A DNA stretch of 64,000 nucleotides, taken from assembly GCA_963793305.1 (NCBI GenBank), contig CAWBZV010000003.1:928001-992000 (forward strand). The letters run 5' to 3'. Below the pieces are notes generated by a model. That model saw only the letters and a program-made list of their open reading frames with translations. It did not search any database and was not told the DNA's origin. Within the stretch, counting starts at the first letter, position 1; each line of letters starts with the position of its first letter. This DNA is from an uncultured Gemmatimonadales bacterium (lineage in GTDB: Bacteria; Gemmatimonadota; Gemmatimonadetes; Gemmatimonadales; Gemmatimonadaceae). The position numbers were made by a program, and so were the translations under genes. Positions 33,480-43,693 of the stretch are shown in pieces.

Positions 33480-33929
33480 ATGGACCCCGTACAAGTCGAA
33501 CAGAAAAGCTATGAGATGCCCCCGCACGAGGGGTTCTCCGTCGCCTATTTTCTCACCGTCGCCGACATTGAGCGATCGGCTCGCTTCTATGAAACGGTCT
33601 TCGGCGGTCGCATTCTGAGCAAGGGCGACAAGAGCGGCGCGCCCGGGTACATCCAGATCGCCAACATGTGGCTCCTGGTGAACGTCGGTGGCGGGCCGAC
33701 CCCCGACAAGCCGACGGTGACGCTCAGCGTCACCGACCCGAATAAGATCAGCAGCTTTATGAATATCCGCGTCGCGGACATTCACGCGTGCTATAAACTC
33801 TGGAAAAGTCGGGGAGCCGAGTTCATCACGGAGCCTATCCCGAAGTACGGCGAGATCCGCTGCTACATCCGCGATCCTGATGGCTATATCATCGAGGTCG
33901 GACAGAGCACCGATCTCACGTACGGGTAA
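33480..33929 (+). CDS. VOC/glyoxalase family protein (copy 1)
   Basis: LTVADIERSARFYETVFGG...YIRDPDGYIIEV. Confidence 0.9.
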   Translation: MDPVQVEQKSYEMPPHEGFSVAYFLTVADIERSARFYETVFGGRILSKGDKSGAPGYIQIANMWLLVNVGGGPTPDKPTVTLSVTDPNKISSFMNIRVADIHACYKLWKSRGAEFITEPIPKYGEIRCYIRDPDGYIIEVGQSTDLTYG

Positions 33930-33932
33930 CGC

Positions 33933-34355
33933 GTGGCGCTGCACTATGAGATGCCCCCGCACGCCGGGTTCACCGTCACATATTTTATCACCGTCGCTGA
34001 CATTGATCGATCGGCCGATTTCTATGCAAGGGTCTTCGGTGGCCGCATTCTGAGCAGAGGCGATAGCAAGGGTGCGTCTGGGCACATTCAGATCGCGAAT
34101 ACGTGGCTCATCGTGAACGTCGGGGGCGGGCCGACGCCCGACAAGCCGACGGTAACGCTAAGCGTCACCGACCCGAATAAGATCAGCAGCTTTATGAATA
34201 TCCGCGTCGCGGACATTCATGCGTGCTACAAACTCTGGAAAAGTCGGGGAGCCGAGTTCATCACCGAGCCTATCCCCAAGTACGGCGAGATTCGCTGCTA
34301 CATCCGCGATCCTGATGGCTATATAATCGAGGTCGGACAAAGCACCTCCGGATAA
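33933..34355 (+). CDS. VOC/glyoxalase family protein (tandem copy 2)
   Basis: Near-identical 3' half to copy 1 (offset 435 bp). Confidence 0.88.
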   Translation: MALHYEMPPHAGFTVTYFITVADIDRSADFYARVFGGRILSRGDSKGASGHIQIANTWLIVNVGGGPTPDKPTVTLSVTDPNKISSFMNIRVADIHACYKLWKSRGAEFITEPIPKYGEIRCYIRDPDGYIIEVGQSTSG

Positions 34356-35174: not shown

Positions 35175-36004
35175 TCAAGGTAGTAGAACGTCGACAACCG
35201 AGCGCCGCGGACCGGCTGGCGCCGGCGCGAGCGGATAGCCCATCCGGAACATGAACGTCGGCTCCCACGTCGCGTCGCCCGTCAGCTCGGCCAGCCGCGC
35301 CTCGGCCCGCGGCGGGCGACGAAGGCGTTGCTCGCGGTCGATGAGCTCGATGGCTTCGTTGATTGGACGCGCGGCGACGCCGTGCACCGTCGCCGTGAGG
35401 TGGAGTTGTTGCCACGCCCTCCCGGCGCGCAGCGTTTGTGCGCGGTCGTGCCGGTCGCGGACGGCGATCACTCCGAAGATCGTGGTGGCCTCCAGGCAGT
35501 GTCGTACGGGGTTCGGTTCGTGTGCCGGTGCGGAATGGCGGTATAGAGCGGGCTTACGTCACGCGGCCCCGGCGACAGGGTCACGCGGACAACGAGGTCG
35601 GGCGTGGGATCCAATGGAATGAGTCCCAGCGTTCCCTCGGAGAGCCAGACCGACGGCGCAAAGCCTTCTGCGCGCGCGGCCAACACGACATTTTCGAGCG
35701 CGCAGCCGAGGCCGAGATGAGCCTCGCGCAGGTACGGATCGAGTGCGCCAGTGTTGCGTTTCGTGTCGAGGTACAGCTCGATCCAGGTGTCGGCCACACG
35801 GAAGAGCCACGGCTGCGAGTTGTGAGGACTCGGCGCCAGAATGGCCGCGCCGATGATCGGCTCCTGACGCCACGTGTGCCACGGTTCGTAGGCGGGGCCT
35901 TGGCCGGTGCTGAAGACACCTTGATCGAGAGCGCGCCAGACACCGCCGCCCGCGACGAGCACGGTGGCAACGCCCGCCTGCGTGAAAAATGCTCGACGGT
36001 CCAT
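35175..36004 (-). pseudogene. Acg-family FMN-binding nitroreductase with Tat signal, internally deleted
   Basis: MDRRAFF; LAPSPHNSQPW; LGCALEN; RHTNR is joined out of frame almost directly to the C-terminal IFGVIAVRD..AGRAWQQLHL..FRMGY..PRR. Confidence 0.75.
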
Positions 36005-37574: not shown

Positions 37575-37610
37575 TGTTAGTCTACACCCATGCGATTGGG
37601 GAGCGCAGCG
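37575..37610 (+). repeat. 36-bp direct repeat, copy 1 (extended -10 + ATG + 7 codons)
   Basis: TGTTAGTCTACACCCATGCGATTGGGGAGCGCAGCG; 35/36 identical to 39667-39702. Confidence 0.92.
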
Positions 37611-37612
37611 TG

Positions 37613-38131
37613 ATGGCAGACAGCCCTTGGCGATGCGAGGTATGCGGTGTCGTTCACAGCGACTCCGTCGCGGCACTCGGTGCTGATGCTCCGCAATACT
37701 GGTATGACCTTCCGCCCACGGAGCGGTCGCGGCGCGCTGAGCTGTCGTCGGATCAGTGCCTTATCGATGATCAACACTTCTTTGTGCTCGGGCGATTGTT
37801 GCTGCCCGTCATCAACGAAGAGGAGGCTTTCGAGCTATTAGTGTGGGTTTCACTGAGTCCTCAGAACTTTCGTAGAATGAGCGAGCTCTGGACCACACCG
37901 GGTCGCGAGGGGGAACCGGCGTACTTTGGATGGTTCAGCAGCCGCCTCCCGGGATTGCCGGAGACCATGAATTTGAAATGCCACGTGCACACGATGCCGG
38001 TGGGCGAACGGCCAAGTGTCGAATTGGAGCCGTCGGCGCATCCGCTCGCGCTCGCTCAGCGAGATGGGCTTACGCGGCCGCAATTGCAATCGCTGATTGC
38101 CCTCCTCATGCATCCACAAACCGAGGTGTGA
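37613..38131 (+). CDS. DUF2199 family protein
   Basis: CEVCGVVH, LSSDQCLID..HFFV, VWVSLS..NF, YFGWF, GERP. Confidence 0.88.
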   Translation: MADSPWRCEVCGVVHSDSVAALGADAPQYWYDLPPTERSRRAELSSDQCLIDDQHFFVLGRLLLPVINEEEAFELLVWVSLSPQNFRRMSELWTTPGREGEPAYFGWFSSRLPGLPETMNLKCHVHTMPVGERPSVELEPSAHPLALAQRDGLTRPQLQSLIALLMHPQTEV

Positions 38132-38141
38132 GAGCGAGATC

Positions 38142-38352
38142 ATGCGATCGGTATTCGTACTCCATCATCTGCACGATGTACAGCTCGGTCGAATCTGCGC
38201 ACACGGCTGTAGAACGGCTACGCGTTCAGCCCGGGTTCTCCGATCATCCACGGATTGTGGATCCGCTGAAAGATGACGACGTGCAAGGCTTTGAGATCGA
38301 CGAGTATCCACTCGATAAGGATCGCTGGTCAGAGGGCTATCTGACTACGTGA
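38142..38352 (+). pseudogene. Small conserved protein (YSS..A..A..RL..QPGF..GF.IDEY.LD..W.EG family) with 5' frameshifting deletion
   Basis: MRSVFVLHHLHD is in one frame and YSSVESAHTAVERLRVQPGF...GFEIDEYPLDKDRWSEGY in another; the linker segment appears to be missing. Confidence 0.55.
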
Positions 38353-38361
38353 TCGCTCGCG

Positions 38362-39459
38362 CTACCGTCTCCGCTTTTTATTCGGCGGTGGCTTGGATTC
38401 GTCGTCGCTGTCTTCGCCGCCGCCGTCCCGCTCGTAGCTGCTGTCACTATCCTCGCCGTCACTCTCGGCGCTATCGTCCCGCGGGCGTTTTGGGTTCCGG
38501 ACCGGCGGCGGTTGCCAGCGTACGGGGCGATCCTGGGGGAGTGGCATGAAGTCATTGAGAATCTGCCAAATGACGTCGCCACCCTCGCGTTCGCCGTGCG
38601 CGTAGTCGAACAGCCGCGCGTAGAGATCGATCGCGGCGCGGTTTTGCTCGCGAAATCCTGCCTCGGCGTTCAGATCGAGCGCAAGACTATCGGCAACGGA
38701 CGAGAGAAGCTCCGCCACCCGGGTGACGTCATCCATGCGAGGACCGTAGTGTGAGTCGGACCCCGGCAAGGTTTCCTCGGCTAGTCCCAGTGATCGGACC
38801 GCTCGTTGCGCCAACGGTCCGGTCGACTGCACCATTTCGATGATGTCCAGAAGCTTCTCTGTCCGCACCTCCGCGTGCATCCCTCTCCGCAGCGCCCAGA
38901 GACGTTCCACCGCCTTCCGAATCGTTTTGTACGGCGACTCGCCCTGCTCGACCAGCATCAACCGCTTGACATTCAAAACGTCTCTGCGCAGAAACCCAAT
39001 CACCGTATTCTCCGGACCCGGACCGGGCCACAGGTTCACGCCGTTGCTGAAAATGAGCCGGGCGACGACCTCGAGCAGCCGGCACATGTGCTCGATGTTG
39101 TCCGGGTCGCGGATGTTGGCGACTGCCACACCGTACCGGGTCGCGAACCCCCTCAACCGGGTATGCAGGATGTGTAACTGGCGGGTCTCGGCGTAAAAGT
39201 TGGCTGCGCGGCAGAGCGTAGCCAGCAGCAGATGCGAGGGGAGAATGTGGCGCCGATGGTTGCCGGCGCCGGGATACAACCCGTTGGCCGTCGGCGTGAA
39301 CGCCGGGCGCCCCTCGTAGTCGAACTCGTCGAATTCGTCGTTCCAATCGAAGCCGAAGTTCGCCGCGGGCCTGAAGGCCGAACCATCACCGGCGGGTGGG
39401 CGTCTCCCAGCACCGGAGATGTCGGGCGCGCGGCGGGTGGGATCCGGGGATTCCGACAT
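38362..39459 (-). CDS. Hypothetical protein; putative HNH-like domain and C-terminal acidic/basic NLS-like tail
   Basis: 365-aa ORF with GC-ending codons; HRRHILP...SNGVNLWPGPGPEN; tail NPKRPR-(D/E/S-rich)-PPPNKKRRR. Confidence 0.7.
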   Translation of the reverse strand: MSESPDPTRRAPDISGAGRRPPAGDGSAFRPAANFGFDWNDEFDEFDYEGRPAFTPTANGLYPGAGNHRRHILPSHLLLATLCRAANFYAETRQLHILHTRLRGFATRYGVAVANIRDPDNIEHMCRLLEVVARLIFSNGVNLWPGPGPENTVIGFLRRDVLNVKRLMLVEQGESPYKTIRKAVERLWALRRGMHAEVRTEKLLDIIEMVQSTGPLAQRAVRSLGLAEETLPGSDSHYGPRMDDVTRVAELLSSVADSLALDLNAEAGFREQNRAAIDLYARLFDYAHGEREGGDVIWQILNDFMPLPQDRPVRWQPPPVRNPKRPRDDSAESDGEDSDSSYERDGGGEDSDDESKPPPNKKRRR

Positions 39460-39666
39460 GGTGCGACGTTATGGAGACCCGAACACGTACGCAAGGAGTC
39501 TGAATGCCGTGTTGGCCGAGACCGGTCGGCTATCCTCCACGCGCTCGCGGCCCCAGGTCACGATGCGCAGTCGCATGATGTTGCGAATGGCATCGTCGTC
39601 ACCGGACCTTTCGAATAGCTGTCGAACGGTCAAAATGTTGAGTTGAACGGCAGAATTCGCCGAGCG

Positions 39667-39702
39667 TGTTACTCTACACCCATGCGATTGGGGAGCGCAG
39701 CG
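39667..39702 (+). repeat. 36-bp direct repeat, copy 2
   Basis: TGTTACTCTACACCCATGCGATTGGGGAGCGCAGCG; contains the start of the 39682 gene. Confidence 0.92.
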
Positions 39703-40086
39703 GAGTATGTCGAACTGGATATCTCGCCGCGTAGGTCCAAAGTGCCGCCGGATGACGACGTGCTGGTCAACGTCGGCGTGCATTGCGACGGCTTTGCCGG
39801 CAACGCCTCACAGTGGGTGCTGGCCCGGGCCTGGGACGCGTTTGTCACCGAGCTCAGCGAGCTTGAGCGGACGCGTCGGGGTCAGGCGGTCCTGCAGAGC
39901 GATTTCGGCCATGCCTTTCTGCTGCGCCTCTTCTCGACCGATCAGGCTGGCCACATGGCCGCGACCGGGATGATCCGGTACATCAGAAGTCGGGAAGACG
40001 CCGGTGCGCTCGAGTTGTCATTCGGCCGCATCGAAATCGATCCGACGAGGTTGCCGGACCTGCTTCGCTTGGTCGAGCAGGCGTAG
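39682..40086 (+). CDS. WapI-like immunity family protein
   Basis: F..EL..L.....G.A.L....L.L...D.AGH....G......L.F..EIDPT.L pattern, recalled from WapI-family proteins. Confidence 0.55.
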   Translation: MRLGSAAEYVELDISPRRSKVPPDDDVLVNVGVHCDGFAGNASQWVLARAWDAFVTELSELERTRRGQAVLQSDFGHAFLLRLFSTDQAGHMAATGMIRYIRSREDAGALELSFGRIEIDPTRLPDLLRLVEQA

Positions 40087-40104
40087 CTCACTCATCATGA
40101 CTGA

Positions 40105-41298
40105 TTACGGCCGCGACGCCGAGTCGAGCACGGCGCCGGTCGCGAGGTTGAGGCGAATCGTGACGTTGGTCGTCTGCCCGGTCGCAATGGTGAAACGCCG
40201 CGCCGACTTCCTTGGCACGTGCCACATTGGGTCGCCGTTCGGGAAATCCCTAAGCAGAACGGTGTAACCGCCGGGCGGCAGTTCTATCGTATCACCCCAC
40301 CCGTCGGCCGTGGCGTGCGTATGGTATGCCGACTTCTCCGACGAATCAGGAAGCTCCAATGCGTGGGTCGCCACGATGTAGCGGTGCGACGATGCTTCCC
40401 ACACGCGCACCCGGGCTTTCCCCCAGGTGCTCCGATCCTGGGGCGGCGGCGGTGGAGGCGGTAGTGGCTCATGCAACTCGGGCGTGGTGCGGCTCGTGCG
40501 GTGCATGCTGAGACGACCGGAGGCCGCCGGGCCGTACGCTTGCTCATACCACCAACCGGTGATCGAGTCGCCCGCGATCTTCCCGTGCACGACGATGCTC
40601 CCATGCGAGATGTTCGGAATCAGCTTCAACTCGATGGTGTCACCCGGGAATGCGGTGCCCACGACGTTGCGGAGGAACGAGGCTTCGCCGTTCGGCGTAA
40701 CCGTCGTCGAGACCAGCTCCGGAACCTCCGTGCCGAGGAACGGCGTCAAGTCGATGTCGAACCGGCCGGACTCCATCTGTACGGTGTCGTCGGGAGGATT
40801 GACGAAAAACGGCAACGGGTTCGCGATCGTCGTGCCAAAGAGCATCGTCCCGCTGACAATGTAGGCAGTCGGTTTTACGCCAGGCTGCTGGTGCACGAGC
40901 GTGAGCCTCACGGTCCATTGCCCGGCAAGTCGGCAACACGGCGCGGGCGACCGGTGGAGCGTGAAGTCAACTACTGTGGTCTTGTGGTCGTGGAGCTCGA
41001 CCTGGTGCTTCGCGACATCGTAGTCGTTGCGCGACGCGGAAAGCGAGAGGATGCCAGCGTGCGCGAACATCGCGAACGCGCCCGTCGAGTCAGTATGCGC
41101 AAAATCCCTGTACTCGTCAGTCTCTCGGATTTCTGCGAGGACGACTGGGCGATGGGTGGTGGCGTCGATGACGTGGCCGATGACGCACGGCGGGGTCGTG
41201 TCATCCCAGTCGTGCCGCGCACACGGCACGCCCTGGCCCATCGCTCGAGCGGCGACAAGAGCCAGCGCGGCGATCGGCAAGATACGACAGGCCGTCAT
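40105..41298 (-). CDS. Exported protein with carboxypeptidase-regulatory-like domain
   Basis: Signal; IGHVIDATTHRPV..AEI..HTDSTGAF..VDFTL; ATGA-coupled to the AraC gene. Confidence 0.7.
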   Translation of the reverse strand: MTACRILPIAALALVAARAMGQGVPCARHDWDDTTPPCVIGHVIDATTHRPVVLAEIRETDEYRDFAHTDSTGAFAMFAHAGILSLSASRNDYDVAKHQVELHDHKTTVVDFTLHRSPAPCCRLAGQWTVRLTLVHQQPGVKPTAYIVSGTMLFGTTIANPLPFFVNPPDDTVQMESGRFDIDLTPFLGTEVPELVSTTVTPNGEASFLRNVVGTAFPGDTIELKLIPNISHGSIVVHGKIAGDSITGWWYEQAYGPAASGRLSMHRTSRTTPELHEPLPPPPPPPQDRSTWGKARVRVWEASSHRYIVATHALELPDSSEKSAYHTHATADGWGDTIELPPGGYTVLLRDFPNGDPMWHVPRKSARRFTIATGQTTNVTIRLNLATGAVLDSASRP

Positions 41299-42339: not shown

Positions 42340-43047
42340 ATGAAGATGATCCGTACGGCGATGCTGCTCGCCGCGGCGTTCCCGGCCCTGTTGGCCGCGC
42401 AAACCGACCAGGCGTCCGGCCCGTACGCGCGCATCGCGACCATGCGTGCGCTGGACGGCCACGGGTGGGAATTGGAGCAGGGATATCTCCGGCACCTCGA
42501 TTGGCACCGGGGGGCCAAGGACACGTATGGCTGGTATAGCTACTCGTTCTGGGCATCCAACGACCGGCAGCGTTGGATCATGTACGCGACGTTCGGCCAC
42601 ACCGCGGCCAGCCTGAGCAACCCGGTCTCACCGGCCGAAGACGAGCAGAACAACGTGCTCAACGTGCTGCCCCACGCCCAGTTCATGAACAACGGGGTCT
42701 ACGAGTTCCTGCCGGCGCTCTCGCGCGGCAATGGTGTGCCGACTCCGACGCCTCGCGCCGAGTACACGACGGTCGTGCTCGTCTATGGCGCGGGCAAGCC
42801 GTTCGAGGCCGCGCTCGCGCTGGAGCAGCCCAAGCTGCGCGGAGAGACGCTGTGGTATCGCATGGTCCTGGGCGGCGATACCCCGAGCTACGTCCGCATT
42901 CGTCCGCGCGAGAACCTGGGCGCCATTCTCGACGAGCGCGCTGATCAGGCGCTCCCCGACAAGGTGACCGGCTTGGTCATGAAGATGACCGTCGAGACGC
43001 TCAATCTGCGGCCGAACATGTTGGTCAACGTCACGCCCGAGCGTTAG
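42340..43047 (+). CDS. Exported uncharacterised protein, paralog 1 (H-x-x-W-H)
   Basis: Signal peptide; RHLDWHR, YATFGHTAASL, YEFLPALSRG, ETLWYRMV. Confidence 0.8.
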   Translation: MKMIRTAMLLAAAFPALLAAQTDQASGPYARIATMRALDGHGWELEQGYLRHLDWHRGAKDTYGWYSYSFWASNDRQRWIMYATFGHTAASLSNPVSPAEDEQNNVLNVLPHAQFMNNGVYEFLPALSRGNGVPTPTPRAEYTTVVLVYGAGKPFEAALALEQPKLRGETLWYRMVLGGDTPSYVRIRPRENLGAILDERADQALPDKVTGLVMKMTVETLNLRPNMLVNVTPER

Positions 43048-43693
43048 ATGCCGTACGGCCCCTACGCCCGTATCTCGATCCTCCGTCCCCATGACGGCGA
43101 CACGGTCGACTTCGAAGCCGGTTCCGTCCGGCACATCGAGTGGCATCGGCAAGCCAAGGACACGTGGCCTTGGTATGTGTACTCGGTCTGGGCATCAACC
43201 GAGCGGCAACGCTGGGTCATGTACGCGACGTTCGGACATACGGCCGCCAGCTTGAACAACCCGGTGTCGCCGGTCGAGGACGAAAAGGACAACATCTTGA
43301 ACATCCAGCGGCACGCCCAATTCCAGGGCAACTGGGTGTATGAGTTTCTGCCGGCGGCCTCGCGCGGGAATGGCGTGCCGACGCCGACGCTTCGCGCCGA
43401 GTACACCACGGTGGTGCTCAACTCGGGCGCGGGCGATGCATTCGAGGCGGCACTCGCGCTGCAGCAGCTCACGCAGCAGAAAGAGACGCTCTGGTATCGC
43501 ATGGTCGTGGGCGGGAATGTCCCGTGCTATGTGCGCCTGCGCCCGCGCGCGAGCCTGGCGGCGATTCTCGATGAGCGCGAGGATCAGGCCCTTCCGGGCA
43601 CCAGCAGGGGCTTGGTCGCGAAAGTGACCGTCGAGACGCTCAACCTGCGGCCCAACATGTTGGTCAAACGTCACGCCCGAGGGACAGCCATGA
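43048..43693 (+). CDS. Uncharacterised protein, paralog 2 (no signal peptide); +1 A near 43667 hides its stop
   Basis: RHIEWHR, YATFGHTAASL; alignment to paralog 1 (GTC AAC GTC ACG CCC GAG) shows an extra A. Confidence 0.75.

Follow-up and report, generated by a model that had tools for sequence, protein, structure and literature searches.

A window of 64,000 nucleotides from an uncultured Gemmatimonadales bacterium contains, on the reverse strand, an open reading frame of 365 codons (38362..39459) whose product, P0001, joins a histidine- and asparagine-containing core to a basic tail resembling a nuclear localisation signal (NLS). An earlier note had read this product as an HNH-like nuclease toxin directed to the nuclei of protists, fungi or plants. 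The locus thus raises the question of what a stand-alone bacterial protein with such a tail does, and to which organism. Our reading, which rests on sequence comparison and structure prediction, is that P0001 is probably a DNA-cutting toxin, a toxin tip of the HRRH/His-Me-like type that stands alone.

The gene, its family and the invariant residues

The reading frame, the motifs and the tail described previously were all recovered in the translation of 38362-39459 of the reverse strand. A contig assembled from run X1 spans 38039-40533 and differs from the window at 6 letters, and pieces from X5, a second study labelled as peat metagenome, cover 38304-38454 and 38878-39115 with zero differences; the window itself may derive from the sample behind one of these two runs. 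The host genome (5.7 Mb, ~65% GC, 92% complete) has a codon usage to which that of P0001 is similar, on the low side, with a GC3 of 0.77 that corresponds to the 18th percentile. A TAACGT hexamer (39466..39471, reverse strand), 6 nt 5' of the ATG, is a putative leaderless-type -10 element and lies at the commonest spacing of this genome (TAnnnT occurs at this distance in 178/3343 genes versus 10/2960 internal-ATG controls), which supports both the start codon and a leaderless promoter. Genome-wide, TAnnnT hexamers 5-8 nt before the ATG are in strong excess, indicating widespread leaderless transcription. Residues 1-35 (39355..39459, reverse strand) form a Pro/Ser/Arg-rich leader that is unaligned in homologs and in which we saw no FIX, PAAR, eCIS_core or xxQR motif.

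The family is rare, with about two dozen homologs found. A search of 1.84 billion representatives with P0001 gave 11 matches, of which 10 were kept (P0011 was discarded as a repetitive false match), and profile scans added three Okeania loci, eight metagenome loci and one long protein. A profile scan of 401 genomes of the phylum of Okeania identified 4 further genomes with a homolog; one match to the family profile (G695) covers the C-terminal part only. No member was detected in 40 relatives of the host or in 400 other genomes of its phylum, nor in IMG/VR, plasmids or phages. Searches of P0001 against Pfam, NCBIfam, PADLOC and PHROGs gave zero family matches, a Pfam scan of P0001 plus 17 aligned members gave none either (AHH, GH-E, Tox-GHH2 and GmrSD_C included), and nothing relevant came up when PDB sequences were searched with P0001 itself and with three profiles. 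We found no description of the family in the literature searched, a scope outside which lay subscription papers and most supplements, and a prior name may exist.

Eight residues (Arg69, Arg70, His71, Asn142, Leu143, Asn151, Ile154 and Asp262, P0001 numbering) are invariant in all 19 aligned sequences, and Arg69, His71 and Asn142 are still invariant in a wider set of 13 rows (13/13). The conserved domain begins at the nearly invariant GRPAF motif (residues 50-54; 39298..39312, reverse strand), followed by HRRHILP (residues 68-74; 39238..39258, reverse strand), which contains the invariant Arg69 and His71, the latter a candidate general base. Residues 138-151, SNGVNLWPGPGPEN, lie 63 residues past HRRHILP and include the segment from Asn139 to Asn151 (NGVNLWPGPGPEN; 39007..39045, reverse strand), with an Asn142-x8-Asn151 spacing in which Asn151 is the putative metal ligand. 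A helical C-terminal domain (residues 152-309; 38533..39006, reverse strand) carries the conserved pattern SL.LDLN...QN and the invariant Asp262.

Toxin contexts of the homologs and the His-Me nuclease reading

The suggestion in the earlier note that homologs might occur as C-terminal toxins of DUF4157 (eCIS_core) proteins was borne out by two fusions, P0018 and P0028, in addition to the PT-HINT protein P0027. In P0018 an eCIS_core domain (E 1.5e-9) is followed by an IIQR motif and then by the P0001-type domain, while P0028 combines eCIS_core (E 2.8e-9) with a P0001-type domain (hhalign 95.5%, E 1.6e-8), its gene being located in an eCIS locus between sheath, Pvc16_N and AAA genes. Two PT-HINT domains precede the P0001-type domain of P0027 (hhalign 98.2%, E 3e-14), and the gene coding for P0029, a weak member (E 3.7e-4), is directly behind VgrG and CIS_tube genes. 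In the available text of PMC8213781, DUF4157-toxin fusions are the architecture typical of eCIS, and an immunity gene is frequently lacking. The C-terminal position behind different trafficking domains (eCIS_core, PT-HINT) is a property of the family and not of P0001 itself. We consider it very likely that this is a family of toxin tips.

In the G518 homolog, the P0001-type domain is joined to a protease domain similar to Herpes_teg_N (E 0.001, below cut-off), a fusion that hints at eukaryotic targets. At the C-terminus of two homologs (L020:3753-4160 and L070:1897-2550) there is a further domain that resembles cysteine proteases (OTU by eye, or Herpes_teg_N at E 0.001), and these domains are possibly deubiquitinases; the OTU-like motif at the end of P0018 was seen by eye, and Pfam and PDB searches gave no support for it. 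P0029 (L073:3810-5033) contains an RGH motif and ends in a stretch of 70 residues rich in Arg and aromatic residues. In all five Okeania-like loci read (L013-L017), the homolog gene is directly behind the gene for a giant protein of up to 2449 amino acids with a conserved unnamed C-terminus. The two giant proteins scanned contain LamG and ricin-type domains, with FG-GAP sometimes present, and the giant protein is possibly a carrier or receptor-binding partner of the homolog. Genes coding for gp19 tube proteins were present in the three Okeania genomes tested (3/3).

The assignment to the His-Me nucleases, made earlier from the spacing of His and Asn residues, stood as far as these residues are concerned, since they are invariant at His-Me spacing; from the structural side it received no confirmation, as four fold searches gave no HNH match. 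According to the accessible portion of PMC5714182, a His-Me site combines a His located on strand 1 with an Asn or His where the helix begins, elaborate loop inserts are allowed, and a second metal ligand (Asp, Glu or His) before the His is often present, although not universal. An AlphaFold model of residues 36-310 (pLDDT 81.7, pTM 0.71) has single beta-bridge residues at His71 and Leu143 (model residues 36 and 108), three helices between them and a further helix from residue 156, an arrangement of bridges and helix that matches the axis of His on strand 1 and Asn near a helix in that portion of PMC5714182. The near-invariant His of the first beta-strand corresponds to His71, invariant and a bridge residue in the model, and the Asn ligand at the helix start corresponds to Asn151, with a placement that is approximate, the modelled helix starting 5 residues later. 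The position of the Asp/Glu/His ligand is held by Arg70 in 19/19 rows.

The families of the His-Me superfamily treated in the same portion of PMC5714182 (DUF1524/GmrSD_C, AHH, GH-E, Tox-GHH2 and the DRGH-type Endonuclea_NS_2) share with P0001 the H-[IV]-[IL]-P strand and the N-L-x7-N spacing. The invariant R-x-H of the P0001 family recalls the DRGH motif of Endonuclea_NS_2 (in P0029 it reads RGH), and DRGH-type members likewise have a non-ligand before the His. P0001 differs from the superfamily in its 70-residue helical insert, in the Arg before the His and in an additional helical domain, which contains an invariant Asp. The Asn142-x8-Asn151 spacing equals that in 10 of 17 GmrSD_C matches, a count made by eye on the correctly framed matches, with 9/26 loci left out. 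In a language-model atlas, residues 45-165 were placed near DUF1524, GmrSD_C, GH-E, AHH and Tox-GHH2 clusters at 0.78-0.83, which we take as leads only; the top named matches fell 10/10 in one family or clan, a result also reached by a third of shuffled proteins. We consider it likely, on these grounds, that the domain is a His-Me nuclease.

The searches may also be read differently, with a toxin tip that is not of the His-Me type and in which HRRH and NLWP..EN form another active site, or a surface for binding nucleic acid or protein, on a new fold. Against both PDB and BFVD, Foldseek with the P0001 model returned 0 matches at E<=0.001, and VIA-align returned helical bundles only (Z<=7.0 when the core was searched, Z<=5.1 with the N-terminal half) and no HNH fold; altogether, four fold searches, four PDB sequence or profile searches and the Pfam scans were without an HNH match, and the model has single-residue bridges instead of long strands. 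With a home-made GmrSD_C profile, hhalign aligned only an 11-column HIIP motif at a probability of 2% (1/100 column shuffles as high), and with a second such profile it gave nothing (28/100 shuffles as high). AHH matched only 1/151 genomes. These searches have to be set against the invariant H...N-x8-N spacing, the HNH families that neighbour P0001 in the atlas and the texts of the fold-search tools themselves, according to which small motifs within helical proteins get missed; the lists obtained here were dominated by helices. The VIA-align search with the N-terminal half is weak, since the motif loops fall below pLDDT 50 when this half is folded alone, and the active-site loops lose model confidence without the helical C-terminal domain (152-309). 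We regard a fold other than His-Me as improbable.

The C-terminal tail, the replacement site and delivery

The tail (residues 310-365; 38365..38532, reverse strand) is composed of KRPR (residues 324-327; 38479-38490), an acidic Ser-rich linker (residues 328-356) and a terminal KKRRR (residues 361-365; 38365-38379). With a home-made gene caller, the K[KR]x[KR] motif was found in the last 8 residues of 37/5144 predicted genes, and only in P0001 is it preceded by an acidic Ser-rich linker (>=40% Asp, Glu or Ser). The class 1 and class 2 NLS patterns describe monopartite basic clusters such as the one that P0001 contains, and they occur in the last 12 residues of 11/3992 proteins of the genome, P0001 included (positions 359-365); P0001 has a second match further inside, at 321-327. 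The same pattern is present in P0001, P0002 and P0004, that is, in 3 of 22 family sequences. Of these 22, one is a duplicate with a variant start and three (P0003, P0022 and P0023) are fragments or are cut by a contig end; P0028, P0029 and the G518 protein lie outside the set. P0002 and P0004 are the nearest complete homologs of P0001, the cores of the three being 38-43% identical, and their tail linkers have diverged to the point of not being alignable letter for letter; that the design persists while the linkers diverged suggests selection on the design. In a tree the three group together with weak support, P0010 falling among them, and the hypothesis that they form one clade was not rejected (p-AU 0.39); since the three are kin, their tails represent one observation and not three. 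The expectation that homologs would carry the tail therefore held for the two nearest and failed for 19/22, some of which are truncated, and to judge from these sequences the Ser/acidic-plus-basic tail is a trait of a sub-group and not of the whole family.

The linker of a bipartite NLS has 10-12 residues. In P0001, KRPR is 33 residues upstream of the terminal cluster, and it is missing in P0002 and P0004, so the conserved feature is one terminal basic cluster and the bipartite, VirD2-like signal proposed earlier has to be abandoned. An enrichment of CK2-type S/T-x-x-D/E sites in the tails was also considered, and the observed counts were reached by 62%, 72% and 100% of shuffles; since the sites are not above shuffles, a likeness to the SV40 T-antigen signal was rejected as evidence. 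The Okeania-like members have Lys/Arg-rich N-termini, yet these proteins are Lys-rich over their whole length. In five members (P0006, P0008, P0024, P0025 and P0026) a TRS-containing basic leader, repeated in P0024, is present at the N-terminus and might, speculatively, be another nuclear or chromatin-binding signal. As for P0001, we lean towards a tail selected for nuclear import.

Alternatively, the same His-Me-like toxin might be antibacterial or of broad range, with the tail acting as a secretion, loading, DNA-binding or self-inhibiting element (in the last case with the acidic linker mimicking DNA) and resembling an NLS only incidentally. PT-HINT fusions are usually antibacterial, and the family contains one (P0027); a positively charged C-terminus can act as a type IV secretion signal, and the genome has a trb-type VirB4 match; most of the family lacks the tail, as counted above, and the available text of PMC8213781 states that bacteria are killed by many eCIS toxins for which there is no immunity gene. 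Against this reading stand the Lys content of the tail, where the genome as a whole has 2.3% Lys, and the lack of a second such tail among the 5144 genes, so that it is not a signal common to other substrates here; moreover, no cognate immunity gene is evident, since the 69-aa ORF converging on P0001 predates it at the site. An antibacterial or broad-range toxin is possible, though on balance unlikely.

P0001 had furthermore been described as cargo of a direct-repeat cassette. The 36-nt direct repeat does exist in two copies, 35/36 identical, on the forward strand: the right copy (39667..39702) is the real start of a 134-aa gene (39682-40086), whose ortholog in G005 has the same 5' end and is 77% identical, and the left copy (37575..37610) is a stranded duplicate of the -10 hexamer and the first 7 codons of this gene. 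A same-genus genome, G001, is syntenic on both flanks (~90% identity) and contains, between them, remnants of the two genes to the left of P0001 followed by four other genes (esterase-like, response-regulator, sensor-like, as assigned by reading, and beta-lactamase-family hydrolase), P0001 being absent. The two genes are a DUF2199 gene (37613..38131, forward strand), which begins just past the left repeat and of which G001 has a 20-nt remnant, and the 69-aa ORF (38143..38352, forward strand; weak DUF7336 match, E 0.0015, below cut-off). The beta-lactamase-family serine hydrolase gene, intact in G001, is reduced in the window to a decayed 5' remnant (39507..39660, reverse strand) that marks the replacement junction. 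P0001 thus replaced other cargo at a gene-swap site shared with G001 and is not carried by the repeat; the neighbours predate it at the site and are therefore unlikely to be its immunity genes, the 69-aa ORF probably not being a cognate one. A contig joint skipping the repeat-bounded block was not found in 4 runs, in contigs that drop rare variants.

Some further features of the region may be recorded. In G005, an Hcp-like fragment (L011:5921-6661, by reading) adjoins the ortholog of the 39682-40086 gene, which may be linked to T6SS or immunity. Tandem or dispersed gene duplications with 73-88% identity are present at 33509-34243, 42413-43351 and 1-300/25083-25382, the pairs at the first two positions being also present in G001. 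A contig from run X1 omits 100 bases (35833-35932), a strain variant or deletion in the 35468-36004 gene.

The site being full of gene remnants, the stand-alone gene with no launcher nearby and its absence in the 40 relatives and 400 other genomes of the phylum would suit a nuclease that acts inside its own cell, for suicide or against phages, or a passenger without a function that persists by drift at a hotspot of gene swapping. PADLOC gave no match for P0001 or the neighbouring genes, the frame is intact, the -10 element is well placed and homologs are found in delivery-system contexts, all of which argues against such a role, and an internal role leaves the tail unexplained; we consider these options quite improbable.

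As to delivery of the toxin, the window contains no secretion system, in agreement with the earlier note, and the scan of the genome for T4SS, T6SS and eCIS revealed the first two, unlinked to P0001, and no eCIS sheath. The T6SS, on contig C5 (740700-764400), looks complete (VipB E 9e-139 and PAAR E 6e-19, the other components by reading), and a trb-type VirB4 cluster is ~185 kb from the P0001 gene. The ClpV-like gene of this T6SS appears as two ORFs. Sheath, Pvc16_N and eCIS_core had no match in the 92%-complete genome, controls being silent in two of these searches, and FHIPEP had no match in the genome. A lone gp19-like tube gene (C3:1298400-1298723) and a 71-aa VgrG OB-fold fragment (C2:768598-768813) are perhaps relics. 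Since P0001 has no recognised secretion or trafficking domain, delivery is the weakest step, and it seems unlikely that the host organism actually delivers P0001.

Proposed action and comparison with known systems

We propose that P0001 is a stand-alone toxin tip from a family of His-Me-finger-like nucleases, the relatives being cargo of contractile injection systems and of polymorphic toxins. His71 would activate water, Asn151 would bind one divalent metal and Arg69 and Arg70 could grip the phosphate backbone, with the 70-residue helical insert filling the loop that would join the two strands and the C-terminal helical domain, with Asp262, presumably packing against the active site. In P0001, P0002 and P0004, a flexible Ser/acidic linker would bear the terminal basic cluster as a monopartite importin-alpha signal, by which the nuclease could enter the nucleus of a eukaryote, such as a fungus or a protist, and cut DNA there. 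The gene is a recently captured passenger at the gene-swap site, where the putative leaderless -10 element preceding it is of the host type, and, if P0001 acts at all, it might do so via the distant T6SS or trb T4SS, or upon release through lysis or ingestion of the cell. The combination of a toxin-tip family, a His-Me nuclease and a tail selected for nuclear import is one that we advance tentatively, as a plausible whole. A more far-reaching scenario, which we hold to be distinctly unlikely, is that the sub-group shed its injection carrier and became a mobile stand-alone gene, with a nuclear address and without immunity or launcher, that moves between unrelated environmental bacteria and poisons the nucleus of a grazer, here a protist, or of a fungus after uptake, lysis or export by T6SS or T4SS.

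Bacterial nucleases known to reach the nuclei of fungi or protists are few, and recent antifungal examples are TseN, TafE and LtdD. P0001 and its homologs form a candidate new family among the toxin tips of eCIS and polymorphic toxins, remarkable for an unusual R-R-H site and a long helical insert, and may thereby assign a function to part of the numerous eCIS_core proteins without an annotated toxin domain. One branch bears a portable NLS-like tail, and the same core with and without the tail offers a clean test of the way in which a toxin tip changes kingdom.

The eCIS toxins built on DUF4157/eCIS_core, as described in the available texts (PMC8213781, PMC11297309), have the architecture of two P0001 homologs, one of them in an eCIS locus. 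P0001 itself, unlike them, is without eCIS_core, and its genome is without a detected eCIS sheath, Pvc16_N or eCIS_core. TafE (Ntox15), Le1893 (AHH) and LtdD (HNH/EndoVII) were described as antifungal DNases, TafE relying on yeast nuclear import (PMC13577199, PMC13600162); in the parts of these sources that were available, they belong to other catalytic families or have other carriers (HxxD motif, RHS/PAAR, XVIPCD), none of which is found in P0001 by Pfam. A close parallel is TseN from Acidovorax citrulli, a protein of 333 amino acids with an essential His and a basic terminal signal that leads to nuclear import in yeast, as the accessible text of PMC12574953 describes. TseN and P0001 are of near-equal size and, as far as that text goes, neither matches known nuclease families, whereas TseN, unlike P0001, has its signal at the N-terminus and a FIX motif, and is delivered by a T6SS and paired with an immunity protein (PMC12574953). 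The motifs of the P0001 family are absent from the TseN supplements and there was no PDB sequence match, so that TseN may be a functional analogue of P0001 that belongs to another family as far as compared (motifs and PDB search). With no tested family feature in common, P0001 may still be likened in its putative action to TseN, TafE and LtdD.
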